Source: Melioribacteraceae bacterium (GTDB lineage Bacteria; Bacteroidota; Ignavibacteria; Ignavibacteriales; Melioribacteraceae). Taken from it: a stretch of 64,000 nt of DNA. The position numbers were made by a program, and so were the translations under genes. The stretch's first letter is position 1; every line of letters begins with the position of its first letter. The stretch covers positions 36,909 to 100,908 of the forward strand of contig JBBFLD010000009.1 in assembly GCA_037481715.1 (NCBI GenBank), given 5' to 3'. Below are positions 31,200-49,774 of this stretch, one piece after another. Below the pieces are notes generated by a model that was not told the DNA's origin, did not search any database, and saw nothing but the letters and a program-made list of their open reading frames with translations.

Positions 31200-34100
31200 T
31201 TATTTTAAGTCCTCTATTACAATCTTAAATTCAGTTCCTTTTTCTGATTTAATTTCAATATTTCCATTAAGCTGATTTACAATTGAATTTATTAACTTCA
31301 TTCCCAAAGAATCTGATTTTTCGATTTCGAAATCTTTCGGCAAGCCAACTCCATTATCTCTTATAATCATTAAGTATTTATTAGAATCAATCTTGTTGAC
31401 TTTTATTTCTACTTTTAATTCATCATTATCTTTAACGAATGAATCGGGGAAAGCATATTTAAATGAATTTGTTACAACTTCGTTTACAATCAATCCGCAA
31501 GATAAAGCAGTATCAAGACTTAAGTTAATATCTTTTGCTTCTATGACTGTAATAATGTTTTTATCTTTTCTTACAAAAGATTTTTTTAATTCGTCAACAA
31601 GACTTTTTATATAATCTTCAAAACTAATCATCGATAAATTTTCTGAGCGGTATAATTTTTCATGAATTAAAGCCATACATTTAATTCTGTCGCGGCTCTC
31701 CTTGAAAGCATTTATTACATTTTCATCCTTCAAATTAATTGATTGAAGAAATAACAAGCTTGAAACCACCTGCAGATTATTTTTGACACGATGATGAATT
31801 TCTTTGAGTAATATTTCTTTTTCCTGAAGTGAAATTTTTAGTTTTTCTTCGGCTTTAATTCTTTCTTCGATTTCATTACTTAATTTTTTTATTGTCTCGT
31901 CAAGATCTTTTGTTCGTTCTAAAATTTTCTCTTCAAGAATTTTATTTTGTTTACGAACATTTCTTGTTCTAAAGTTTATATAAAGAGCTACCATCAAGAT
32001 TAAAGCAGCTGCAGACAAAAATTTAAATAATGCTGTTTGATAAAAAGCAGGTAAAATTATAATGTTTAATGTTGCCTGTCTTGCATCTCGAATGCCATCA
32101 ATATTATATGCTTTTACAATGAACTTGTATTCTCCCGGAGGTAAATTTGTGTATGTAGCAGAATTTCTGTTTCCAACATCGTTCCAGTTCATATCAAATC
32201 CTTCGAGCTTGTATGAATATCTGTTCTTTTTTACATTGTAAAAATCCAGAAGTGCAAATTCAATAGTAATAACATCATTGCCAGGAGGAATGGTTATACT
32301 TTTTGCTTCAGTTATTGATTCTTTAAGAATTGAATTGTTTTTTCCAATCGGAACAGATTCATTATATATTTTCAAATCAGTAAAAACTATTGGTGCATTA
32401 AGATATTGTTCTTTAATACTGTCAGGATTGAAATATAATAAGCCACCTCCGCAAGAAAAATAAAGATATCCATTTTTAGATTTAGCAGTTAAATTTTGAG
32501 AAAACTCTTGAGCTGGTAATCCATTTCTTTTTGTGTAGTTATAAAAAGTATTAGTTTTTCTATCAAATTTTGCTAAACCTTTATCGGAAGTAATCCAAAT
32601 GTTTCCATTGTTGTCTTCGATTATTCCATTTATAATATTTCCCGGTAATCCATCTTTAGTTTTATAAATTTTTGTTTTGTTGGTTTTATAGTCGTAATAG
32701 CTTAATCCATCGCTCGTTCCGAACCAGATAATTCCATCGCTGGATTCAAAGATTGCAAATACTCTATTCTCACTAATTCTTAATGATGCTAAAGATGATT
32801 TTGTAAAGTTTATAAATTTATTTGTCTTGGGATTGAGCATGCCGGCACCACCTCCATCAGTTCCAACCCATATCATTCCTCGTGAATCTTCAAAAACAAC
32901 CCACACTAAATCGTAAGGTAAACTATTTGGATTATTATTATCATGAAGATATCTGTAAAATTTTTCTGTTTTCTTATTATACTTATTTAATCCCCACCAT
33001 GTAGAAAACCATAAATTGCCATGTCTATCTTCGCAAATAGAAGTAATTCCGTTATTACTTATTGATGTATTGTCGTTAATATCATAAGTGAATAATTTGA
33101 ATTTTTTAGTTTTGGGGTCGTATCTATTTAATCCACTATGATTTGTGCCAATCCAGATATATCCGTCACTATCTTCATAAACAGACATTATAAAATTATC
33201 ACTAATACTATTAGAATTGTTTGGGTTATTTTGGAAATGAGTTATGCCCGATTTTTCTAATTTGTATAAACCATCAAGAGAACCAAGCCAGATATCATTA
33301 TTTTTGTTTATAAAAATAGATGTTAATCTATTGCTGATGTTATTGCTTATAAAATGAAAATTATTTTTTGGAAAAAAGGTTTTGCTTACACCTCCTCCAG
33401 TTCCTATCCATATAATTCCTGTATTATCTTGAGTTAAAGAAAGTATGTTATTGTCAATTATTGAATAAGTTTTATTGGGGTCATGTAAAATTCTAACAAA
33501 GTTGTCGCTTAGAGGTAAATATTTATTTAATCCATTCTTCGTACCTATCCATATATTATTTTCTCTGTCTTTGAAAATTGTATTTACATGGTCATCAGTA
33601 AGTGTTGATGAATTATTTTTAATGGACTTATAAAATTTTATTTTTTCATTCAGTAAATTATATTTTGCAATACCTTTGTTGGATAAGCCAATCCATAGGT
33701 TGTTTGAATTATCAATGAGTAATGAAGAAACTATTCTGTAATCAAAATATTTGTAATCCGGTGGTTGAGCAAATATTTGTTTGATTACTTTTCCATCCTT
33801 TGTCATGCAGGTTAATCCATTCCATGTTCCAAGCCATAAATTACCTTTACTATCTTCCTCAATACAAACAACACTGTTTAATGAATCGGGGTTAAGTCTG
33901 TCACTTACTTTTTTGATAACAGTAAAATTATCTTTTTCTTTATTGTATTTATTTAATCCATTAAGTGTCCCAACCCATAATGTGCCTTCTCTATCGATAA
34001 AGAGTGTGATTACATTATTATTGCTTATACTGTTTGGATCATCAGGATTATTTTTGTATACAATAAATTCTTCGGTTTTTCTTTTATATTTGTTCAAACC

Positions 34101-34418
34101 GTCAATTGTAGCAACCCATAGATTTCCATCTTTGTCCTCAACAATAGAAGAAATTGAGTGGTTGGAAATACTTGTTGGATTTTCTTGTTCTGGCAAGAAT
34201 ATTTTAGAATTATATCCATCGTATCGGTTTAATCCATTATAAGTTCCAAACCATAAAAAACCTCTGCTGTCCTGAAAAATTTTTGTAACCCCATTTGTTG
34301 ATATACCATCTTCAACAGTAATATGTGAAAAATAAAATACAGGGTTTTGAGATAACAATTGAATATTTGTTATAAATATTAGAATTATGAATAAAAGTGT
34401 ATTTTTTTTGTTTGTCAT
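31200..34418 (-). CDS. Sensor histidine kinase with periplasmic two-component-regulator propeller repeats / Y_Y_Y domain and a HisKA_2-type kinase core
   Basis: About 14 repeats of the pattern G.LW.GT..GL..Y. A Y_Y_Y-like Ig domain (YSYKLEGFDMNWNDVG...YKFIVKAYN). One TM helix and a coiled coil. H-box HHRVKNNLQVV and a C-terminal HATPase (DNGVGLP). Confidence 0.85.
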   Translation of the reverse strand: MTNKKNTLLFIILIFITNIQLLSQNPVFYFSHITVEDGISTNGVTKIFQDSRGFLWFGTYNGLNRYDGYNSKIFLPEQENPTSISNHSISSIVEDKDGNLWVATIDGLNKYKRKTEEFIVYKNNPDDPNSISNNNVITLFIDREGTLWVGTLNGLNKYNKEKDNFTVIKKVSDRLNPDSLNSVVCIEEDSKGNLWLGTWNGLTCMTKDGKVIKQIFAQPPDYKYFDYRIVSSLLIDNSNNLWIGLSNKGIAKYNLLNEKIKFYKSIKNNSSTLTDDHVNTIFKDRENNIWIGTKNGLNKYLPLSDNFVRILHDPNKTYSIIDNNILSLTQDNTGIIWIGTGGGVSKTFFPKNNFHFISNNISNRLTSIFINKNNDIWLGSLDGLYKLEKSGITHFQNNPNNSNSISDNFIMSVYEDSDGYIWIGTNHSGLNRYDPKTKKFKLFTYDINDNTSISNNGITSICEDRHGNLWFSTWWGLNKYNKKTEKFYRYLHDNNNPNSLPYDLVWVVFEDSRGMIWVGTDGGGAGMLNPKTNKFINFTKSSLASLRISENRVFAIFESSDGIIWFGTSDGLSYYDYKTNKTKIYKTKDGLPGNIINGIIEDNNGNIWITSDKGLAKFDRKTNTFYNYTKRNGLPAQEFSQNLTAKSKNGYLYFSCGGGLLYFNPDSIKEQYLNAPIVFTDLKIYNESVPIGKNNSILKESITEAKSITIPPGNDVITIEFALLDFYNVKKNRYSYKLEGFDMNWNDVGNRNSATYTNLPPGEYKFIVKAYNIDGIRDARQATLNIIILPAFYQTALFKFLSAAALILMVALYINFRTRNVRKQNKILEEKILERTKDLDETIKKLSNEIEERIKAEEKLKISLQEKEILLKEIHHRVKNNLQVVSSLLFLQSINLKDENVINAFKESRDRIKCMALIHEKLYRSENLSMISFEDYIKSLVDELKKSFVRKDKNIITVIEAKDINLSLDTALSCGLIVNEVVTNSFKYAFPDSFVKDNDELKVEIKVNKIDSNKYLMIIRDNGVGLPKDFEIEKSDSLGMKLINSIVNQLNGNIEIKSEKGTEFKIVIEDLK

Positions 34419-34606: not shown

Positions 34607-34626
34607 TAAATTTATAGACTTTGTTA

Positions 34627-35670
34627 ATGATAAAGATAGGGATAGTTGGTGCCGCAGGATATTCAGGAGTTGAGTTAATTAAACTGCTTTTGAATCATCC
34701 AGATGCGGAAATAAAAAAATTGTTCGGTCAATCTACCGCAGGTTTGCGAATTGATGAAGTACATACTTCCTTGAGAAATTTGATTTCTCTACAGATAGAA
34801 AATTTTTCTGAAGAATCTCTCAATGAACTCGACTTAATTTTTGTTGCGCTTCCTTCTGGACAGGCTTTTGAATTTGTTCAAGCCGCATACAATAAAAATG
34901 TGAAAGTAATTGATATTGGTGGAGATTTCAGATTAAAAAATATTGATGATTATAAAAAATATTATAAACATGAACATAAGGCACAGGAACTTCTTCAAAA
35001 AGCTGTTTATGGATTAAGTGAGTGGAATGAATTAGCAATATCAAATGCGGAAATTGTTTCTAATCCCGGATGTTATCCAACAAGTATTTTACTTGCTCTT
35101 CTTCCATTGCTTAAAAATGATTTAATAGATGATTCTTTTGTTAGCATAGTATCTTACAGTGGAACATCTGGTGCTGGTAAATCTGCAGTTCAAAACATGA
35201 TATTTAGTGAAGTGAATGAAAATGTAAGAGCATACAAAGTTGGTAATCATCAGCATATTCCTGAAATAAAATATTATCTTGAATCTTTTGGTAATAAATC
35301 AATCAATTTTTCTTTTGTGCCTCATCTGCTTCCGGCAACAAGAGGAATTTATACTACAATTAATGCTCAATTGAAAGAAGATGTTGATGATAAAATTATT
35401 AAAGAAGTTTATGCTTCATCATATTCTTCAAAACCATTTATTAGATTTATTGGAAATTCAATTCCAGAGATGAAAGATGTTGCCAATACAAATTTTTGTG
35501 ATATTGGTTTTGTAATTAATGATAATTCGATAACAATTTTTTCAACAATTGATAATTTAATAAAAGGTGCCGCAGGTCAGGCAGTTCAGAATATGAATAT
35601 TTTATTTGGTCTACCACAAGAAACAGGATTATTAAAATGGAACAAGAATTGGAAATTGCAGTTGAGATGA
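34627..35670 (+). CDS. argC: N-acetyl-gamma-glutamyl-phosphate reductase
   Basis: MIKIGIVGAAGYSG Rossmann N-terminus and active-site SNPGCYPTS. The ORF track starts at TTG 34621. ATG 34627 is preferred. Confidence 0.9.
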   Translation: MIKIGIVGAAGYSGVELIKLLLNHPDAEIKKLFGQSTAGLRIDEVHTSLRNLISLQIENFSEESLNELDLIFVALPSGQAFEFVQAAYNKNVKVIDIGGDFRLKNIDDYKKYYKHEHKAQELLQKAVYGLSEWNELAISNAEIVSNPGCYPTSILLALLPLLKNDLIDDSFVSIVSYSGTSGAGKSAVQNMIFSEVNENVRAYKVGNHQHIPEIKYYLESFGNKSINFSFVPHLLPATRGIYTTINAQLKEDVDDKIIKEVYASSYSSKPFIRFIGNSIPEMKDVANTNFCDIGFVINDNSITIFSTIDNLIKGAAGQAVQNMNILFGLPQETGLLKWNKNWKLQLR

Positions 35671-36860
35671 AAACCGGAGTTACAGCACCAAAAGGATTTA
35701 AAGCAGCAGGAATTCATTGTGGAGTTAAAAGATTCAAAAAAGATTTAGCTCTTATTGTATCAGATGTTCCTGCAGTTGCAGCTGGTGTTTTTACTCAGAA
35801 TAAGGTACAGGCAGCCCCAGTTTTGCTTTCTAAAAAATATCTTTATGAAAATGAAAAATTCCGTGCAATAATTATAAACAGCGGCAATGCAAATGCTTGC
35901 ACAGGAGAAAGAGGTTATAACGATGCAGTTGCAATGGCTGAGATTACAGCAAGAGAATTAAATATTCGTCCCGAAGAAGTTTTTGTTTCTTCAACTGGAG
36001 TTATTGGAGAACCTCTTCCTATGGAAAAAATTTCTTCTGGAATTAAAAAAATTGTTCATCACTTGAGCGATGATGATAACAATTCAGCTGCAGAGGCTAT
36101 ATTAACGACAGACACTTTTATTAAAACCGCTTCAAGGAGTTTTGACATTAGCGGTAATACCGTAACAATAGGCGGCATAGCGAAAGGTTCTGGGATGATT
36201 CATCCAAATATGGCAACAATGCTTGCATTTATTACTACAGATGCAGCAATTGAAAAGAATGTATTTCAAGCTATGTTGAAAGATATTACTGATAAAACTT
36301 TCAATAGAATTGTAGTTGATGGAGATACAAGTACAAATGATATGGTAATTGCTCTTGCAAATGGTTTGTCGGGAATAAATCCAATTATTGCAGATACTGA
36401 AGCTTATAAAATTTTTTATGATAATCTTTACGAAGTATTAAAAAAATTATCAATCGATATTGTAAAAGATGGCGAAGGTGCAACCAAGTTAGTTGAGATT
36501 AATGTAGTAGGTGCGAAGAACGACGAAGAAGCTCTTAAAGCTGCAAAGACAGTCGCTCTTTCACCTCTTGTTAAAACTGCAATTCATGGTGAAGATGCTA
36601 ATTGGGGAAGAATTATAGCTGCAGTTGGTTATTCGGGAATTGATTTTGACCCCGCAAAATTCGAAATAATAATTAATGATGTTCCAATTCTGTTACAAAA
36701 TTATAATGTTACTCTTCCTGCAAAAGAAGCAAATAAAACTCTAAAGCCAAAAGAAATAAATTTATTACTAAGATTAAATATTGGTAATGGAAAAGCAACT
36801 TGCTGGACATGCGATTTTTCTGAAGAGTATGTGAAAATTAATGGGAGTTACAGAACTTGA
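35667..36860 (+). CDS. argJ: Bifunctional ornithine acetyltransferase / N-acetylglutamate synthase
   Basis: VTAPKGFKAAG N-terminus and the autoproteolytic site ATMLAFITTDA. ATG 35667 forms an ATGA overlap with the argC stop. The alternative upstream ATG is at 35637. Confidence 0.9.
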   Translation: MKTGVTAPKGFKAAGIHCGVKRFKKDLALIVSDVPAVAAGVFTQNKVQAAPVLLSKKYLYENEKFRAIIINSGNANACTGERGYNDAVAMAEITARELNIRPEEVFVSSTGVIGEPLPMEKISSGIKKIVHHLSDDDNNSAAEAILTTDTFIKTASRSFDISGNTVTIGGIAKGSGMIHPNMATMLAFITTDAAIEKNVFQAMLKDITDKTFNRIVVDGDTSTNDMVIALANGLSGINPIIADTEAYKIFYDNLYEVLKKLSIDIVKDGEGATKLVEINVVGAKNDEEALKAAKTVALSPLVKTAIHGEDANWGRIIAAVGYSGIDFDPAKFEIIINDVPILLQNYNVTLPAKEANKTLKPKEINLLLRLNIGNGKATCWTCDFSEEYVKINGSYRT

Positions 36861-37705
36861 CACAACCTAATTACAGAAAAGAAGATGTTCTTGTAGAAGC
36901 TCTGCCTTATATTCAGCAATTTGAAAATGCTGTTTTTGTAATTAAGTATGGCGGTGCAGTAATGCACGATGAATCACTAAAGCAAATGGTTGCTCAGGAT
37001 GTTACACTTTTAAGAAAAATTGGTATTAATATAGTTGTTGTTCATGGCGGTGGTAAAGAAATTACATCACTTTCTGAAAAGTTAAATTTGAAAACTACAT
37101 TTGTGAATGGTCAACGTTATACTGATGAACAAACCCGTGATGTTGTTCAAATGGTTCTTGCAGGATTGATTAATAAAGATATCGTAAGAAGAATTAATAT
37201 TTACGGCGGCAGAGCTGTTGGTATAAGTGGAATTGATGCAAGTCTTGTTAATGTAAAAAAATACAGTAAAGAAGATTTAGGTTTGGTTGGTGAAATTACA
37301 AATGTCAATGAAGCATTTATTAGAAGTTTGCTCAAAGACGGCTATCTTCCTGTAATTGCTCCAATAGGCGTTGACGAAGAAGGAACAATTTATAATGTAA
37401 ATGCTGATATTGCAGCAGGCAATATTGCCGGTGCATTAAATGCAACAAAACTTGTTTATATGACAGACATCGAAGGAGTAAAAGCAGGTGATACATTAAT
37501 TTCACATCTTACAAAGAGTGATGCAGAAAAATTTATTCAAGATGGAACAATCAGCGGTGGTATGATTCCCAAAGTAAATTCTGCTTTATCTGCTCTTGAT
37601 GCCGGTGTTCAAAAAGTTCATATAATTGATGGAAGAATTCAACATGCACTATTGCTTGAAATATTTACTAAAGAGGGTGTTGGAACCGAAATAGTATCAG
37701 ATTAA
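36857..37705 (+). CDS. argB: Acetylglutamate kinase
   Basis: Motifs LPYIQQF, VIKYGGA and VHGGG. TTG start overlapping the argJ stop (TTGA). Confidence 0.9.
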   Translation: MTQPNYRKEDVLVEALPYIQQFENAVFVIKYGGAVMHDESLKQMVAQDVTLLRKIGINIVVVHGGGKEITSLSEKLNLKTTFVNGQRYTDEQTRDVVQMVLAGLINKDIVRRINIYGGRAVGISGIDASLVNVKKYSKEDLGLVGEITNVNEAFIRSLLKDGYLPVIAPIGVDEEGTIYNVNADIAAGNIAGALNATKLVYMTDIEGVKAGDTLISHLTKSDAEKFIQDGTISGGMIPKVNSALSALDAGVQKVHIIDGRIQHALLLEIFTKEGVGTEIVSD

Positions 37706-37725
37706 AACCAAATAAAAGGTGAATT

Positions 37726-38187
37726 ATGAGCAGAAAGCTTGAAGATATTCAAAAACGCCATGCATTGATTAAATCCTTGATTTCTTCACAGAATATTTAT
37801 AATCAAACTCAGCTTGTAAAAATTTTGAAACAGAAAGGAATCAAAGTTACACAAGCAACATTATCGCGGGATTTAACTGATCTTGGTGTTGTAAGAGTTC
37901 CTACTTCAGAAGGTCTTGTTTATAAACTTGGCACTGAAGGCGGTGATGGAGCTCTTAAATCCAGAATAGCAGAAGAAATAATTTCAATTGAATCTAATGA
38001 ATGCATTGTTCTTATAAAGACATTTTTAGGAAGGGCTCAGGGTGTTGCAGTATATATTGATAAACAAAATGAACCAGAAATTCTTGGCACAATTGCAGGT
38101 GATGATACTATCATAGTTGTTCCTAAAACAATTAAAAACATTAAAAAAGTAATTGAACAATTAAAAATAATATTAGGGATTAAGTAA
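37726..38187 (+). CDS. argR: Arginine repressor
   Basis: 153 aa. N-terminal winged helix (TQATLSRDL) and a C-terminal oligomerisation/Arg-binding motif (GTIAGDDTI). Confidence 0.85.
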
Positions 38188-38188
38188 T

Positions 38189-39415
38189 ATGAGCAAACAA
38201 AAAATAGTTGTAGCTTATTCAGGTGGACTCGATACATCAGTCATGGTTCACTGGCTTAAAAAAAATTATGATGCTGAGATAATTACATTTACTGGAAATC
38301 TTGGCCAGTCAAAAGAATTAGAAGGACTTGAAGAAAAAGCTCTTAAGTCAGGAGCTTCTAAAGTATATATTGAAGATTTGACGAAAGAATTTATTGAAGA
38401 ATATGCTTTCCCGGCTTTAAAAGCTGGAGCTCTTTATGAAGGGGCTTATCCAATGGCTACATCACTTGGTAGACCATTATTAGCAAAAGCTCTTGTTGAA
38501 ATTGCAAAGAAAGAAAATGCTACAATGGTTGCGCATGGATGCACAGGTAAAGGAAATGACCAGGTTCGATTTGAAGTTTCTGTTGGTGCTCTTGCCCCGG
38601 ACATTAAATGTATTGCACCTTTAAGAACATGGGAATTTAAATCCAGAGAAGAAGAAATTGATTATGCACTTGCAAATAATATCCCGGTAGCTGCAACAAA
38701 AAGTAATCCATATTCAATTGATGATAATATCTGGGGTACTGCAATTGAATGCGGTGTTCTTGAAGACCCCATGGTTGAACCTCCAGAAGATGCATTTTTA
38801 CATACAGTATCTCCAGAAAATGCTCCTGATGACCCTGAATTGGTTGCTATTGAATTTGAAGCTGGCATTCCAAAAAGCGTTAATGGAAAAGAGCTCGATA
38901 GTGTTTCTCTGGTCAAATTATTAAATGAAATCGGCGGAAGAAATGCTATTGGAAGAATTGATATGATTGAAAATAGATTGGTTGGAATTAAGTCAAGAGA
39001 AGTTTATGAAGCTCCTGCAGCCACAATTCTCCATTTTGCACATAAAGAACTTGAGAGAATTACACTTGAAAAATCTGTAATGCACTATAAAACTTTAATC
39101 TCTCAAGAATATTCTAACTTGATTTACAATGGTCTCTGGTTTACACCATTAAGAGAAGCTCTTCAGGCTTTTATAGATAAAACTCAGGAAAAAGTAACCG
39201 GACTCGTTAAGCTAAAACTTTATAAAGGAACAATAAGAATTTCTGGAAGAACATCTCCTTATTCACTTTATGATCCTGCGCTCGCTACATACACTGTTGA
39301 AGACCAATTTGATCATTCTGCTTCAGAAGGATTTATTAAAATATATGGACTACCATATAAAACTATAAACAGAGTAATGCAAAAAGTAGAAGCAGAAAAT
39401 AAATTATCGGTATAA
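38189..39415 (+). CDS. argG: Argininosuccinate synthase
   Basis: [10 protein letters not shown]-loop-like motif and [13 protein letters not shown]. Confidence 0.95.
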
Positions 39416-39418
39416 TTC

Positions 39419-40786
39419 ATGGCTATCTGGAACAGCAGATTTAAAAAGCAGCTTGCAGAATCGGCATTAAAATTTTCTTCATCTATTGATATTGATGGGA
39501 AATTATTTAATGAAGATATTGATGGAAGTATAGCTCATGTTAAAATGCTCTCAAAGCAAAAAATTATTTCAAAGACTGATGAAAAGAAAATCATAAATGC
39601 ACTTGAAGAGATAAGAAATGAAATTATAAATGGCAAAATAAAACTTGATTGGAGAAAAGAAGATATTCATTCTGCAATCGAAGAAAGATTGGTTGAAAAA
39701 ATTGGAGAGACTGGAAAGCGGCTTCATACAGCAAGAAGCCGCAACGACCAAATAGCTCTTGATGAAAGATTATACATAAGAAAAGAAATTCTTGATTTAG
39801 TAAAGATTATTTTATCTCTTCAGAAAGTATTATTAAAATTAGCTGAAGAACATAAAACCACCATCGTTCCAGGTTATACGCATCTTCAAAGAGCTCAGCC
39901 AATTTTATTTGCACATCATCTGCTTGCATATATCGAAATGTTCCAGAGAGATAAAGAAAGACTAAATGATTTACTTAAAAGAGTAAACAAATCTCCGCTT
40001 GGTGCCGCTGCATTTGCAGGAACTTCAATTAATATAGATAGAAATTTTTCCTCAAAACTTTTGAAAATGAATGGAATTGTTGAAAACAGTATTGATGCTG
40101 TAAGTGACCGCGATTCTTTAATTGAATTTATTTCTGCCTGTTCAATAATAATGATGCATCTGAGCAGATTAAGTGAAGAATTGATTTTGTGGAGTTCTCA
40201 GGAATTTTCGTTTGCATCATTTGACGATGAATATGCAACCGGCAGTAGCCTTATGCCTCAGAAGAAAAATCCAGATTTTGCAGAATTAATTCGTGGGAAA
40301 ACAGGAAGAGTCTATGGCTCGTTAATTGGTTTATTAACAATTATGAAAGCTCTTCCACTTGCTTATAATCGTGACATGCAGGAAGATAAATTTCATCTTT
40401 TTAATGCAGCAGATACTACAAAAGATTGTTTGAAAATTATGTCAGAATTACTTGCTCACACAAGTTTTAATAAAAACAGGTTTGAAGAAGAACTAACAGG
40501 AGATTTATCTTTGGCTACCGACCTTGTTGATTATTTAGTAAAAAAAGATGTTCCATTTAGAAAAGCACATCACATTGTTGGTAAGATTGTTTCAAAATGT
40601 GTTGAAGAAAAGATTAAACTTCATCATCTCTCGTTAAAGGATTATAAAAAAATCTGCCCAAAATTTGAAAATGATATTTACAATCTCTTCAATCCAAAGA
40701 CAAGTATAAATAATAAAAAATCTGAGGGAAGCACTTCGCCAGCAGAAGTTGAGAAACAGATTAAGAAATGGAAAAAAATTTTGTAA
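39419..40786 (+). CDS. argH: Argininosuccinate lyase
   Basis: Fumarate-lyase signature GSSLMPQKKNPD, and also TARSRNDQ. Confidence 0.95.
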   Translation: MAIWNSRFKKQLAESALKFSSSIDIDGKLFNEDIDGSIAHVKMLSKQKIISKTDEKKIINALEEIRNEIINGKIKLDWRKEDIHSAIEERLVEKIGETGKRLHTARSRNDQIALDERLYIRKEILDLVKIILSLQKVLLKLAEEHKTTIVPGYTHLQRAQPILFAHHLLAYIEMFQRDKERLNDLLKRVNKSPLGAAAFAGTSINIDRNFSSKLLKMNGIVENSIDAVSDRDSLIEFISACSIIMMHLSRLSEELILWSSQEFSFASFDDEYATGSSLMPQKKNPDFAELIRGKTGRVYGSLIGLLTIMKALPLAYNRDMQEDKFHLFNAADTTKDCLKIMSELLAHTSFNKNRFEEELTGDLSLATDLVDYLVKKDVPFRKAHHIVGKIVSKCVEEKIKLHHLSLKDYKKICPKFENDIYNLFNPKTSINNKKSEGSTSPAEVEKQIKKWKKIL

Positions 40787-42278: not shown

Positions 42279-42332
42279 TTTTAACCTCCATATTTGTTTT
42301 GAACCTGTCTTATTGCTGTAAAAATTTTAAAA

Positions 42333-42368
42333 CAAAAAAGCCGTGAACGGTTCTACCATCCACGGCTT
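42333..42368 (-). terminator. Attenuator terminator in the trpB2 leader
   Basis: Minus-strand RNA AGCCGUGGAUGGU-AGA-ACCGUUCACGGCU, a 13-bp stem with two G-U wobbles that would be mismatches on the plus strand. Followed by U6. Lies 55 nt upstream of the trpB2 ATG. Confidence 0.65.
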
Positions 42369-42390
42369 TTTTATTAGAATATTTAAAGTC

Positions 42391-42459
42391 CTAGGACGGT
42401 AGAGAAGATATTCTCCACCACCACCAATTATTTTCAATATTTATATTCTTGAATTTCAT
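42391..42459 (-). CDS. Trp-rich leader peptide (22 aa: MKFKNINIENNWWWWRISSLPS)
   Basis: ATG at 42459. Four consecutive UGG codons at 42415-42426. UAG stop at 42391-42393. The Trp codons lie in the 5' arm of a hairpin, and that hairpin's 3' arm can instead pair with the terminator's 5' arm. Confidence 0.65.
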   Translation of the reverse strand: MKFKNINIENNWWWWRISSLPS

Positions 42460-42465
42460 TGTTCA

Positions 42466-42494
42466 AAAGTAATTTTTGAATTGTGTTTTGTCAA
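42466..42494 (-). promoter_or_regulatory. Putative promoter for the trp leader/trpB2 transcript
   Basis: On the minus strand: TTGACA (42489-42494), a 17-nt spacer, then TACTTT (42466-42471). The leader ATG is only 6 nt downstream of the -10 element and has no SD, so the leader peptide mRNA may be leaderless. Confidence 0.35.
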
Positions 42495-42669: not shown

Positions 42670-43968
42670 ATGATTAAGCCTAACACAAAAATAGTGGATG
42701 AAATAGAAATCAATTTAGATAGAAAACTAAAAATAGTTGATGAAAGCTGGGACTTTAAGAAAGCAAACACAAAAGAATATACTCACTGCTTTCATGCCTA
42801 TCCTGCTATGATGATTCCTCAAGTTGCAAGACGGCTCATAGAAAATTTTGGTAAAAATGCTAAAATCTTATTTGACCCTTACTGCGGAACTGGAACTTCT
42901 TTAGTTGAAGCAAATATTTTTGGCATTAATGCAATTGGCACAGATATTAATCCATTAGCAAGATTAATTGCAAAAGCAAAAACTACTGTCCTTAATATGA
43001 ATGAGCTGGATTTTTTTATCAATGATTTCATTGACTATGTTTTTTCTTTGAACTTTGGTGCAGAAAATGTTAAATCAATAATTATCCCTCAAGTTAAAAA
43101 TATTGATTATTGGTTTTCGAAAAATGTTCAAAAAAAATTAGGAATAGTTCTTGGGTATATTGAGAGCATTGTTGATATAAATATTAAAAACTTTTTTAAA
43201 GTTGCTTTTAGCGAAACAGTTCGAGAAACTTCATTTGTTAAACAAGGAGAATTTAAGTTAGTAAAAGACAAAAATCTAAAAGAAAAAGAGGACAAGGATG
43301 TTTTTGGGATAATGATTTCAAAACTTGCAAGAAATAGAACAGGTCTTTTAGAATTTATAAATGCTCATAAAAATAACTCATTTACTTATATATATGATTT
43401 TAATACAGTTTATAAAATTCCGGAAGATTTGATTCAATCTAACAGTATTGATATTGTTGTTACATCCCCTCCGTATGGAGATTCACGAACTACGGTTGCA
43501 TATGGACAATACTCTCGTTTTGCAAATGAATGGCTTGGTTTCAAAGAAGCAAATCAAGTTGATAAAATGTTAATGGGCGGAGAGAAAAGAAAACATTCTC
43601 ACATTTTCAAAAGCGAAATATTAAATGATGTTATTAATGCAATTCAAAACAAAGATAAAGAGCGAGCAAGGGATGTTATTTCTTTTTATGAAGATTATGA
43701 AAAATCAATTATGAATGTTTCAACTACAATAAAACGCGGTGGATTTGTTTGTTATGTTGTAGGAAATAGAACAGTAAAAGGAATTAATATTCCTACAGAT
43801 GAAATAACTGCAGAATTATTTGAATCAAATGGTTTTGATCATATTGAAACGATTGTAAGAAATATCCCAAACAAAAGAATGCCGCTAAAAAATAGCCCTA
43901 CGAATGTGGCGGGTGAAACATCAAATACAATGAAAAATGAATATATAGTAATCTGCCGGAAAAATTAA
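42670..43968 (+). CDS. DNA methyltransferase (SPPY type, probably N4-cytosine or N6-adenine)
   Basis: SAM-binding motif I FDPYCGTGTSLVEA (about aa 69) and catalytic motif IV VVTSPPYGD (about aa 265), separated by a region of about 190 aa. Followed 1 nt later by a nuclease gene. Confidence 0.8.
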   Translation: MIKPNTKIVDEIEINLDRKLKIVDESWDFKKANTKEYTHCFHAYPAMMIPQVARRLIENFGKNAKILFDPYCGTGTSLVEANIFGINAIGTDINPLARLIAKAKTTVLNMNELDFFINDFIDYVFSLNFGAENVKSIIIPQVKNIDYWFSKNVQKKLGIVLGYIESIVDINIKNFFKVAFSETVRETSFVKQGEFKLVKDKNLKEKEDKDVFGIMISKLARNRTGLLEFINAHKNNSFTYIYDFNTVYKIPEDLIQSNSIDIVVTSPPYGDSRTTVAYGQYSRFANEWLGFKEANQVDKMLMGGEKRKHSHIFKSEILNDVINAIQNKDKERARDVISFYEDYEKSIMNVSTTIKRGGFVCYVVGNRTVKGINIPTDEITAELFESNGFDHIETIVRNIPNKRMPLKNSPTNVAGETSNTMKNEYIVICRKN

Positions 43969-43969
43969 T

Positions 43970-44671
43970 ATGCAGATAAAAGAGTTAATAACACGCTTGG
44001 AAAATTTAAAAGAAAAAGGATTCATAAAAACTTTGAGAAAAGGGCCTACAGGAATAGGTCATCTTCTAGAAAATGAGCTTGGACTTTTAGAAACAAATAT
44101 TGCTATTCCAGATATCGGTGGTAGAGTAGAATTAAAAGCTACAAGGAAAAATGCAAATTCTTTGATTACTTTATTTACATTTAATAGGGGTGTATGGAAA
44201 ATTAAACAAAAGGATTTGATAAATAAGTATGGATATAAAGATGAACAAAATAGACAAGCACTTTACAATATTGTAAATGTTAAAACACCAAATACTCAAG
44301 GCTTTTACTTATCTTTAGATAAAGAAAAGAATTTAATTATATTGAAAAATATTAATGAAATAGAAAACATTGCCGAATGGAGTACATATGTAATTGCTGG
44401 AAAGTTCATGACAAAACTTGATAGACTATTATTAATTATAGCAGATAACAAATTTGAAAATGATATAGAGTACTTTCACTTTAATGAGGCGTACCTGCTT
44501 GAACATCCCACACCAGAAAAATTTTTAGATGCCTTTGAAAAAAATGAATTAATGATTGATTTAAGAATGCATATTAAAGAATCAGGCGGAGTTCGAAATC
44601 ATGGTACTGGCTTTAGAATTTCAGAAAGAAATCTGGTTAATTTATATTCGAAGAAAAGAAGGCTGTTATAA
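43970..44671 (+). CDS. Type II restriction endonuclease, MutH/Sau3AI/MvaI-BcnI-like
   Basis: 233 aa. GPTGIGHLLENELGL...PDIGGRVELKATR matches the GxxGxxxExxLG ... D-x5-E-x-K pattern of the MutH/MvaI/BcnI fold. Size is similar to BcnI and MvaI. Paired with an SPPY methyltransferase, as in those systems. Confidence 0.6.
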   Translation: MQIKELITRLENLKEKGFIKTLRKGPTGIGHLLENELGLLETNIAIPDIGGRVELKATRKNANSLITLFTFNRGVWKIKQKDLINKYGYKDEQNRQALYNIVNVKTPNTQGFYLSLDKEKNLIILKNINEIENIAEWSTYVIAGKFMTKLDRLLLIIADNKFENDIEYFHFNEAYLLEHPTPEKFLDAFEKNELMIDLRMHIKESGGVRNHGTGFRISERNLVNLYSKKRRLL

Positions 44672-48043: not shown

Positions 48044-49774
48044 ATGAAGAAAGTCTATTTTATATTATTTCTGTTAGCTTCTTTTTCATTCCTCTATGCT
48101 CAAAGTGCAATTTCTAATTATGTTGAAGAATTCCGTGGTGACACCGCAGTAGTAAAAGAGGGCATGTTATACGAAGCAATTACATATGATACTCTTAATG
48201 TTCCAGCAGGTCGTGTTTATCTATTAAAGAAAGCATCAACTTATGCTCTTGGTTCTAATCCAACATCAAAAGCAGGACGTCATACTATTATTGTAGGGGA
48301 GAATAGAACTCCTATTTATCAAAATACCAAGACTGATGATATGTTCCCTGTAATTTGTGGTTTAGGTGGAAACAGTGGTGGTATCAACTATGGTGGCGAC
48401 TTAACTGTTAAAAATGTTATTGCAGTTCCAGCCTCTGCAGAAGGAACTTTGGGTTGGGTATTTTTCTGGGGTTCTGCTCCAAATAGCAGAGTTACCTTAG
48501 AGAACAGTATTTTTGAAAAAACTCGATGGGTTATTGTAGCTTCAAATGCAGTAGCTGGTACAAGATTGTTCATTAGAGACTGCTATTTTGTAAATCTCAG
48601 TGGTCAGGCATGCAGACGTAATGGTGGTGTTTATGATAATGTTGATAATCCAACAGATACTATCTGGGTAGAAAACAGCACTCATGTTATGGCTCAAGGA
48701 ATGATGTATAAATTCCGTAACTATCCTATCAAGAAGTTAATGTTTAATCATAATACATTTGTTAACTGTGCTGGTATTATTTTCGAAACAAATGGTTATC
48801 AAAGTGATTGGACTGTAACAAATAATATTTTCGTTAATAGCAATGTTCAACCTTTTACTTTTATTGCAGAAGACTATCCTGAAGTCGACCCTGATACCTT
48901 AGCTCATGGATTAATCAACGTAAGAGATTTGCCGCCAGATTACGAACAAGTTCCACGCAAAGTTCTTGTTGACAGAAATTTAGTATACTGGGATCCAAAA
49001 CTTAGCAACCTTGCTTCTGAAATGATAGCAGAAAATATCAATAGCACAAATAAATGGTTCAACCAAACCATTAAAATGAATTCCCGTACAAAAGCAATGT
49101 TCGATGATAATTCTAAATATCCTTATCTAACCGAAGGAACCTGGTATGAAAAATTGCCTAATTTTGTAAAACCGCTGGATTTATTAACTGACCAGGTTGA
49201 TATCCTTAAAACATTTGCAAAAGAAACAATGGATTTAAGCAAGTCAGCTCTTTTACCTGAATGGAGAAAAGTACTGGTTGGACAGGATTATTATGTTTAT
49301 CCAGATTTTCCAGTACCTATAAATCTTGCTTATACAGATAGTGACTTATTAACAGCTGGTTTGAATGGCTTCCCACTTGGAGATCTAAACTGGTTCCCAG
49401 AAAAGAAAGCTCAGTGGCTTAAACAAAGAAATGCAGAATATGCAGCTCTTCAACAGGCACTGGATAGTGGAAAATTACCAGTTGGAGTAGAAGAAACAGA
49501 ACCATTGCCAACTTCATTCGAAGTAAAACAAAACTATCCTAACCCATTCAATCCAAAGACTACAATTACATTTTCAATACCAAAAGCTGGAAATGTAGTT
49601 GTTAAAGTATTTAACATTCTTGGACAGGAAGTTGCTACAATCTTTAATGGCACCTTACCAGCTCAAACACATCATATTGATTTTGATGCTTCTAATTTGA
49701 CAAGCGGTGTTTATATCTATTCTGTACAATATGATGGACTTACTATTTCCAAGAAAATGGTATTATTGAAGTAA
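48044..49774 (+). CDS. Secreted parallel beta-helix-like protein with a T9SS C-terminal sorting domain; function unknown
   Basis: Signal peptide. Repeated beta-helix-like rungs (VKNVIAV, LENSIFE, IRDCYFVN, VENSTHV, FNHNTFVNC, VTNNIFVNS). C-terminal Por tail (QNYPNPFNPKTTITF...GVYIYSV...KKMVLLK). Confidence 0.6.
   Translation: MKKVYFILFLLASFSFLYAQSAISNYVEEFRGDTAVVKEGMLYEAITYDTLNVPAGRVYLLKKASTYALGSNPTSKAGRHTIIVGENRTPIYQNTKTDDMFPVICGLGGNSGGINYGGDLTVKNVIAVPASAEGTLGWVFFWGSAPNSRVTLENSIFEKTRWVIVASNAVAGTRLFIRDCYFVNLSGQACRRNGGVYDNVDNPTDTIWVENSTHVMAQGMMYKFRNYPIKKLMFNHNTFVNCAGIIFETNGYQSDWTVTNNIFVNSNVQPFTFIAEDYPEVDPDTLAHGLINVRDLPPDYEQVPRKVLVDRNLVYWDPKLSNLASEMIAENINSTNKWFNQTIKMNSRTKAMFDDNSKYPYLTEGTWYEKLPNFVKPLDLLTDQVDILKTFAKETMDLSKSALLPEWRKVLVGQDYYVYPDFPVPINLAYTDSDLLTAGLNGFPLGDLNWFPEKKAQWLKQRNAEYAALQQALDSGKLPVGVEETEPLPTSFEVKQNYPNPFNPKTTITFSIPKAGNVVVKVFNILGQEVATIFNGTLPAQTHHIDFDASNLTSGVYIYSVQYDGLTISKKMVLLK

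Follow-up and report, generated by a model that had tools for sequence, protein, structure and literature searches.

A putative tryptophan leader-peptide transcription attenuator upstream of a stand-alone trpB2 gene in a Melioribacteraceae bacterium

Introduction

How is a trpB2 gene that stands outside any trp operon controlled, and what does its control say about the role of the enzyme? Out-of-operon trpB2 usually coexists with an operon trpB1 and its selective function was unidentified (Merkl, PMC1854888); the physiological role of out-of-operon TrpB2 has been open since the early 2000s (PMC1854888). The question arises in a 64,000-nucleotide stretch of contig JBBFLD010000009.1 from a Melioribacteraceae bacterium (assembly GCA_037481715.1, positions 36,909 to 100,908 of the forward strand), referred to here as the window, where a lone trpB2 is preceded on the minus strand by a short open reading frame (ORF) with four successive Trp codons and by a terminator hairpin. 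A preliminary description of this region had proposed an attenuator with the ribosome-stalling layout, and that proposal is supported here by a conserved leader ORF, covarying helices, modelling of ribosome occupancy and a position between divergent genes. With a probability of roughly 85%, the element is a classical ribosome-mediated (leader-peptide) transcription attenuator, predicted to turn trpB2 on when charged tRNA-Trp is scarce.

Organisation of the leader region

Of the six defining features of leader-peptide attenuators, the window has five: an ORF with tandem codons for the regulatory amino acid, a terminator, an antiterminator, a 1:2 hairpin, and a stop codon placed for occlusion. 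The sixth, a rise in read-through when charged tRNA-Trp runs short, is predicted. The features of the region are given below in the direction of transcription, all on the minus strand.

42494-42489, minus strand: -35-like hexamer TTGACA of the leader promoter, as read from the sequence
42471-42464, minus strand: TACTTTTG, a perfect TAnnTTTG (Bacteroidetes-type -7 box); its first six bases are TACTTT (42471-42466)
42459-42391, minus strand: leader ORF of 22 codons plus UAG, predicting the peptide MKFKNINIENNWWWWRISSLPS; no Shine-Dalgarno (SD) sequence upstream
42426-42415, minus strand: four UGG (Trp) codons in succession, codons 12-15 of the ORF
42419-42411, minus strand: segment 1, GGUGGAGAA, 5' arm of hairpin 1:2; the helix extends to 42427 in the minimum free energy (MFE) structure
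42406-42394, minus strand: segment 2, UUCUCUACCGUCC, able to pair with segment 1 (via 42406-42398) or segment 3 (via 42403-42394)
42372-42334, minus strand: intrinsic terminator T1, composed of A6, GCCGUGGAUGGU-AGA-ACCGUUCACGGC and U6
42361-42352, minus strand: segment 3, GGAUGGUAGA, part of the terminator (its loop and upper 5' arm) and antiterminator partner of segment 2
42333-42279, minus strand: unstructured 55-nt spacer (only -3 to -5 kcal/mol) that holds the trpB2 SD and leaves the ribosome-binding site (RBS) free
42289-42285, minus strand: trpB2 SD, GGAGG, 6 nt ahead of the ATG (42278)
42278-40959, minus strand: trpB2, monocistronic, encoding a 439-aa TrpB-like pyridoxal phosphate enzyme (NF009057)

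When the minus strand was re-read from 42494 to 42333, the ORF, the Trp codons, hairpin 1:2, the 2:3 pairing and the U6 were all found as first described. Hairpin 1:2 consists of GGUGGAGAA (42419-42411), a UAUC loop and UUCUCUACC (42406-42398), and is widened in the MFE structure to 42427-42391, taking in the entire UGG run through to the stop codon. The alternative, antiterminator pairing joins UCUACCGUCC (42403-42394) to GGAUGGUAGA (42361-42352) in 10 bp that include one G.U. The 3' end of segment 2 abuts the leader stop codon UAG (42393-42391). The terminator had been given a 13-bp stem; its hairpin and U6 are present, the U6 at 42339-42334, but the stem of the hairpin at 42366-42340 is G+C-rich and made up of 12 core pairs lengthened by A/U pairs. 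The promoter-like sequence ahead of the leader reads TTGACA, N17, TACTTT, 6 nt and then the leader ATG. This arrangement and the missing SD before the AUG both agree with the earlier reading, as does the position of the trpB2 SD and ATG, the latter 55 nt past the U-tract.

The region is unannotated, as had been stated. Gene finders call no gene in the intergenic region that holds the leader ORF, and neither its peptide nor seven orthologous leader peptides are present in a collection of 15 billion proteins. A chance origin of the run of four Trp codons had been judged improbable, and this is borne out by the single occurrence of TGGTGGTGGTGG in the 64-kb window where 0.00 were expected from 100 dinucleotide-preserving shuffles. 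The 9-mer TGGTGGTGG is likewise without a second copy in the window.

In the proposed mechanism, transcription would begin at, or a few nt from, the leader AUG, and a ribosome would translate the 22 codons while RNA polymerase proceeds. The geometry suggests that when Trp-tRNA is plentiful the ribosome reaches the UAG at 42393-42391 and covers segment 2, upon which the 3:4 terminator would form ahead of the U6 and transcription would stop 55 nt short of trpB2. When Trp-tRNA is scarce, the ribosome would stall at the four UGG codons and hold segment 1, leaving segment 2 free to pair with segment 3 as it emerges; the upper terminator stem would then be blocked, and read-through would allow TrpB2 to be made and Trp to be supplied from indole. 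On an untranslated leader, 1:2 would form first, then 3:4, and termination would be expected.

The leader lies in a 391-nt intergenic region between divergent genes. Because T1 is located between divergent genes, it can affect only transcripts begun within that region, and is thus an attenuator by position.

Folding energies and ribosome occupancy

The 146-nt leader folds at -50.3 kcal/mol, compared with -24.1 +/- 3.4 kcal/mol for shuffled sequences (z = -7.8). Folding had been named as a check on the initial proposal, and both predicted structures appear in the MFE fold, which consists of the hairpin spanning the UGG run to the stop codon and the long terminator hairpin. As isolated elements, hairpin 1:2, the 2:3 duplex and the terminator give -15.7, -18.0 and -26.0 kcal/mol, respectively. 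Across the family of related leaders described below, the ranges are about -16 to -20 kcal/mol for the 1:2 state, about -12 to -21 for 2:3 and about -17 to -24 for the terminator, so that 1:2 and 2:3 are similar in strength and both are weaker than 3:4.

Occupancy by a ribosome (footprint -12 to +15) was modelled on a transcript truncated at the point where segment 3 is exposed and segment 4 is not yet. With any of the four UGG codons in the A site, segment 2 is free in these truncated folds and 2:3 forms at -20 to -22 kcal/mol. With the ribosome at the UAG, segment 2 is fully masked and only unrelated structure of -5 to -8 kcal/mol is found, to be followed by the terminator. When 2:3 is forced, the remaining 3' sequence yields a trivial 3-bp hairpin and no terminator-like hairpin. 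The preliminary description had cautioned that the lower part of the terminator stem is not sequestered by the antiterminator. The objection is weaker than it appeared since GCCGU lies inside the loop closed by 2:3, and its pairing with ACGGC while 2:3 persists would require a pseudoknot.

Conservation and covariation in related loci

A total of 80 trpB2 loci was taken from species-representative genomes (referred to by L numbers). The closest 25 encode proteins of 68-97% identity to the TrpB2 of the window and, with one truncated, 24 were usable. A short ORF with 3-4 in-frame UGG codons is found about 180-280 nt ahead of trpB2 in 23 of these 24 Ignavibacteriota-like loci; loss of the leader ORF and Trp codons from orthologous loci, which would have spoken against the proposal, is therefore not what is seen.

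The window and 23 orthologous loci were aligned (alignment A1), with slid helices and 500 shuffles as controls. In these 24 sequences, 97.0% of cells are paired in the 3:4 terminator (25-53% when slid), 90.3% in the 2:3 antiterminator (30-52% when slid) and 90.9% in the 1:2 helix (49-67% when slid). Pairs that have changed on both sides number 3, 4 and 3, respectively, so that the covariation looked for upstream of orthologous trpB2 genes is present as compensatory changes in all three helices. Columns 38-86 of the antiterminator, for example, are occupied by CG, UA and UG in 9, 9 and 5 sequences, respectively. RNAalifold, run with no structure supplied, gave 1:2 plus 3:4 as the consensus ground state.

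Conservation extends to the primary sequence. UGGUGGUGG is invariant in the alignment, and the terminator core, GCCGUGGAURGU...CACGGC, is sharply conserved. This can be read as a chain of complementarity in which segment 2 is tied to the invariant UGG codons, segment 3 to segment 2 and segment 4 to segment 3, the same effect having been noted for actinobacterial attenuators by Seliverstov et al. (PMC1262725). The N-terminal part of the leader peptide drifts in sequence and is fixed in length, with 10-14 codons before the first UGG (mode 11); this length may fix how far the stall site lies from a start at the 5' terminus. The part before the Trp run is rich in Asn and Lys codons in the leader peptides of the window, L001-L025 and metagenome contigs L092-L185.

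Residues past the Trp run also look conserved (SLPS, SLLS or PLS, then the stop). This would be expected of a TnaC-like arrest peptide that senses free tryptophan through an SLPS or PLS end and stalls at the stop codon, in which case Trp would induce trpB2. However, in L005, L024 and metagenome contig L173 the ORF ends 2-3 codons past the Trp run and the same RNA (YCYNCYRUCC) follows out of frame, indicating that the constraint is on base pairing, to segments 1 and 3, and not on the peptide. In these three, segment 2 begins within about 1 nt of the stop and is under the footprint of a terminating ribosome. A ribosome held at the stop would moreover mask segment 2 and favour the terminator, the terminator is intrinsic and not Rho-dependent, and on physiological grounds Trp would hardly be expected to induce an enzyme that forms it. 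An arrest peptide is accordingly highly improbable, and membership of the TnaC type was rejected on the early-stop orthologs and the intrinsic terminator.

A metagenome scan for the conserved core returned at least 120 stretches. Among the matches listed, 12 have the full signature and the other 108 are chance matches that lack the terminator. Of the full-signature matches, at least 12 in number, 11 are followed by trpB2 and the contig of the twelfth ends 100 nt past the match; all have 3-4 UGG codons, and 9 are non-redundant with the genome set. The association with trpB2 is exclusive, no full-signature core being found ahead of another gene among the matches listed. A tRNA-like sequence (GGGCGCGTAGCTCAGGGG...CCACCCGCGCTCA) was seen by eye in L009 (~2760-2830), ending a few nt before the leader ORF region, and its 3' end is visible in L007.

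Search for known RNA families

No Rfam 15 family reached its gathering threshold in the whole window or in 16 orthologous loci. A permissive search with 311 nt (E <= 10) gave sub-threshold matches to RF04312, the trpB motif (36.7 bits against a gathering threshold of 59; E about 1e-3), to RF01692, Bacteroid-trp (35.3 bits against 49; E = 0.013), and to RF00514, His_leader (30.0 bits against 49). RF00513, the proteobacterial Trp_leader, is absent from the 30 matches listed at this cut-off. The T-box (RF00230) gave no match in the window either at gathering or at E <= 10, and the same search finds T-boxes in the Firmicute loci L034 and L029. Both membership of Bacteroid-trp, where the match is below gathering and involves mainly A/U-rich flanks and the UGG run, and membership of the trpB motif, where a below-gathering match covers a generic hairpin plus terminator and the taxon (Firmicutes and Fusobacteria) differs, were rejected.

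The RF04312 match bears on a different reading, in which the element is a riboswitch, or a switch that binds a protein or a tRNA (TRAP-like, T-box-like or resembling the trpB motif of Firmicutes), and the UGG codons are not translated but serve for binding or pairing. The authors of RF04312 were undecided among riboswitch, protein binding and attenuation (PMC11109978), and the unusual degree of sequence conservation in the terminator core also speaks for this reading. Set against this, the match is 22 bits short of the threshold, neither a T-box nor any other Rfam family is hit, and three simple competing helices are present in place of a complex conserved aptamer. Without exception a start codon lies in frame 10-14 codons ahead of the UGG run, and a stop is nearby, while the N-terminal peptide drifts; the conserved core would be explained by the chain of complementarity that starts from the invariant UGG codons. 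A switch of this kind is very unlikely.

Evidence against attenuation

Several points weigh against the leader-peptide attenuator. The covariation score is above all 500 shuffles for each of the three helices, but the 24 sequences are related, so that the shuffles overstate significance and the slid controls are the fairer yardstick. One of the usable loci, L020 (an Ignavibacteria metagenome-assembled genome (MAG), TrpB2 72% identical), has neither a UGG-run ORF nor the conserved terminator in the region searched (L020:2700-3000). In equilibrium folding of the full-length leader the terminator wins under every ribosome mask, and the model would need kinetic, co-transcriptional folding, as in E. 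coli; because attenuation is kinetic, the equilibrium result is not itself evidence against an attenuator. In the window, 2:3 (-21.2 kcal/mol) exceeds the 1:2 state (-16.1 kcal/mol) in stability by about 5 kcal/mol, for which reason an untranslated leader might leak. Judged by these energies, 1:2 may be a leaky anti-antiterminator, and an untranslated leader may read through substantially, more than E. coli trpL. The leader has no SD, so its translation would hinge on a leaderless or short-leader start. The transcription start, termination, the coupling of ribosome and polymerase, and the response to Trp in vivo all enter the model as predictions.

That L020 manages without a leader would also fit the absence of any regulatory function, with a chance ORF lying beside a constitutive or vestigial terminator. 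Yet a UGG run is not expected by chance, the element is kept ahead of orthologous trpB2 genes whose products are as little as 68% identical and whose neighbouring genes vary, and covariation is found in three competing helices. A constitutive terminator of -26 kcal/mol would, in addition, silence a conserved gene. The comparative data effectively refute this explanation, which is barely credible.

Leader promoter and translation start

TTGAC(A) is found at the same spacing in the window, L001-L004, L012, L013, L016 and L017. In 12 of the 24 loci a perfect TAnnTTTG precedes the leader start codon by 4-8 nt, with a gap of exactly 4 nt, the modal value, in the window, L001, L002, L003, L005 and L016. 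L013 and L017 have TTGACA-N17-TATCTT or TATTTT, then 6 nt and the start codon, and other loci have looser boxes or longer gaps. A sigma70 consensus scan of the window did not list the TACTTT promoter, which matches TATAAT at just 3 of 6 bases.

The primary sigma factor of Bacteroidetes has TAnnTTTG as its -7 box (PMC7366714), and in Flavobacterium psychrophilum the box is positioned at -12 to -5 (PMC9723704). Placed in that way, the box predicts +1 at 42459, the A of the leader AUG, and a sigma70-style reading (TTGACA-N17-TACTTT plus 6 nt) predicts the same +1. The odds that the leader mRNA is leaderless, which would be a notable feature, appear to be near even.

The same attenuator may instead start farther upstream, or a few nt before the AUG, and use the SD-independent, A-rich initiation of Bacteroidetes. 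This is a serious alternative, at somewhat less than even odds. In several orthologs (L007, L008, L025 and others) the nearest recognisable box is 12-33 nt from the start codon or there is none, GUG, a poor codon for leaderless initiation, is the start in L005, L012, L017 and L122, and further promoter-like sites are present in the window at 42639-42611 and 42604-42575. In mapped Bacteroidetes, only 3.7-5.5% of mRNAs are leaderless (PMC7366714, PMC9723704). On the other side, the modal 4-nt gap fits the published -12 to -5 position exactly and coincides with the sigma70-type prediction, and the leader AUG has no SD whereas trpB2 has GGAGG.

In the published Bacteroid-trp alignment (PMC2864571), the start codon is 2-8 nt past a TAnnTTTG-like box, with Cytophaga hutchinsonii having TATCTTTG, 5 nt and AUG. 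Near-leaderless leader ORFs may be a design shared in the Fibrobacteres-Chlorobi-Bacteroidetes (FCB) group.

A fifth segment in related loci

A fifth segment, GCCGUGA(AC), is located between T1 and the trpB2 start in 22 of the 24 loci, the exceptions being the window, where no such relay is found in the spacer (42279-42333), and L001. Its complementarity to segment 4 beats shuffles (p < 0.05) in 22 of 24 loci. Two arrangements were distinguished. In one, segment 5 doubles as the 5' arm of a further hairpin with a U-run behind it, found by strict criteria in L014, L018, L019 and L021-L023 and visible by eye also in L004, L007, L009, L015, L024 and L025. In the other, segment 5 is complementary to GAGGUUCAC-AUG, the region where ribosomes bind ahead of trpB2. 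The duplex between the segment 5 region and the RBS beats shuffles (p < 0.05) in 10 loci, nine of them informative as L001 has no segment 5.

With segment 4 free, 4:5 forms on folding in about 16 loci; with segment 4 locked in T1, the second terminator or the RBS mask forms instead. In the modelled structures this reads as a relay that would pass one sensing event on to a fail-safe terminator or a translational lock in the relatives, and that appears to have been lost in the lineage of the window.

The trpB2 gene and its surroundings

The preliminary description had identified the regulated gene as a lone TrpB2, and this holds. The predicted protein scores 734.7 bits with NF009057 (cut-off 366) and 682.2 bits with TIGR01415 (cut-off 518.85), and only 173.5 bits with the canonical trpB model TIGR00263, under its cut-off of 392. 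The proteins most closely related to it come from Melioribacter and from MAGs of other Ignavibacteriota, that of an uncultured Melioribacter being 97% identical, and identical copies are found on Logan assemblies from two sequencing runs. The gene has its own terminator at 40921-40891. Neighbours of trpB2 vary by lineage and include genes for a fumarase-like lyase, a hybrid kinase, a diacylglycerol-kinase-like protein and an amylase-like protein; no trp gene lies beside trpB2 in the lineages compared. The leader thus seems to travel with a monocistronic trpB2.

A probable type II restriction-modification pair is encoded on the opposite strand (42670-44671, plus strand), facing away from the leader promoter; it consists of an N6_N4 DNA methyltransferase of 432 aa and a 233-aa endonuclease of the MvaI/BcnI family. 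An argC-argJ-argB-argR-argG-argH cluster (34621-40786, plus strand), in which the gene for the ArgR repressor is embedded, converges on trpB2 at its argH end. There is no leader-peptide candidate ahead of the arg cluster, and no further convincing candidate was found in the intergenic regions of the window. A 1072-aa protein with weak PorZ-like and histidine-kinase-like matches (31200-34418, minus strand) and a protein with a type IX secretion system (T9SS) type A sorting domain (48044-49774, plus strand) both fit an organism of the FCB group.

Control of trpB2 in other lineages and significance

Stand-alone trpB2 genes preceded by a UGG-run ORF, a terminator and 2:3-type alternatives were also found in L041 (KSB1), L054 (Weeksellaceae), L055 (Spirochaetota) and L061 (Caldithrix), with sequences unrelated to the window family, and in Tepidanaerobacter (L034) a T-box (123.4 bits) is immediately ahead of a stand-alone trpB2. 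Control of orphan trpB2 by the supply of Trp-tRNA therefore appears to recur by means of different devices.

Attenuation has been a textbook mechanism since the 1970s, and finding it here is conceptually unsurprising. What is new, as far as sequence comparison can tell, is the sequence family, together with a phylum and a target gene not previously catalogued for attenuators of this long-known type; in the full-text literature searches made, no such element was found described for Ignavibacteriota. Well-supported classical attenuation would now extend to this phylum. No Rfam 15 model captures the element, and genome annotation consequently misses both the leader ORF and the regulatory RNA. A broader claim is tentative and falls only just short of even odds: that these are phylum-wide, uncatalogued Trp attenuators, truly leaderless with a TAnnTTTG promoter, dedicated to orphan trpB2 and extended by a fifth-segment relay in most relatives. 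If so, taken with the Trp leaders in at least four other phyla and the Firmicute T-box, out-of-operon TrpB2 would be an enzyme induced by tryptophan starvation, as fits indole salvage.

The regulatory logic argues for a role of TrpB2 in tryptophan supply, Trp-tRNA-gated expression being regulatory evidence for such a role, and the idea of indole salvage can be put to the test in a genus that is cultivable. With 4 nt conserved between box and AUG, the leader would also allow a clean study of how leaderless translation is coupled to attenuation within the FCB group, in which leaderless mRNAs are uncommon. In the relatives, the relay of five or six segments would let a single sensing event coordinate two terminators, or a terminator and an RBS.

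Comparison with known attenuators

Bacteroid-trp (RF01692; Weinberg et al. 2010, PMC2864571), a presumed Trp leader-peptide attenuator of the sister phylum Bacteroidota known computationally, is the nearest known relative in kind and lineage, although the window element is not a member by score. Both have at least two UGG codons in a short, promoter-proximal ORF followed by a terminator, and Bacteroid-trp is found upstream of Trp-synthesis genes ('trpB and trpE') (PMC2864571). The Bacteroid-trp elements have a 'loosely conserved hairpin' and occur in Bacteroidota, whereas the window family has a sharply conserved three-helix core, an Ignavibacteriota-like host and a dedicated target in stand-alone trpB2.

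Narunsky et al. 2024 (PMC11109978) classed the trpB motif (RF04312) as a riboswitch candidate; it is known from Firmicutes and Fusobacteria, where for the most part it is located ahead of an ATP-binding cassette (ABC) transporter. It resembles the window element in having two hairpins of which the second is an intrinsic terminator, an antiterminator in the right shoulder of P1, and sometimes a position ahead of trpB, and its authors allow for a classic attenuator (PMC11109978). It differs in that P1 of the model carries a 26-nt insert missing in the window and no UGG-run ORF is described. The Firmicute T-box upstream of trpB2 has the same input (uncharged or scarce tRNA-Trp), antitermination output and target gene, but senses tRNA directly by RNA-RNA contacts without translation.

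Outside Proteobacteria, classical Trp attenuators with 2-3 UGG codons have been predicted or validated in Actinobacteria (Seliverstov et al. 2005, PMC1262725). These share with the window family conserved complementary triples common to antiterminator and terminator (PMC1262725), and differ in phylum, in sequence and in being upstream of trp operons or trpS and not of an orphan TrpB2-family gene. The Corynebacterium diphtheriae 'trpB2A' attenuator (PMC1262725) was set aside, as the name refers to a paralogue within a trp operon and gives no evidence on orphan TrpB2. For mycobacteria, Shell et al. 2015 (PMC4633059) describe short regulatory ORFs translated from leaderless transcripts.

The closest parallel in mechanism is E. 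coli trpL (RF00513). There, as in the window, UGG codons are located in segment 1, the 1:2, 2:3 and 3:4 pairings are mutually exclusive, and the stop codon is placed so that a terminating ribosome covers segment 2. From Yanofsky's work, the energies of E. coli trpL reportedly follow the order of the window family, with 1:2 and 2:3 similar and 3:4 stronger. The two leaders have no sequence relationship, and the window has four UGG codons where trpL has two, no SD, probably no 5' untranslated region (UTR) and an FCB-type promoter, and one orphan gene under control in place of trpEDCBA. Seen by analogy, the layout of the mechanism nevertheless appears to match that of E. coli trpL point for point.

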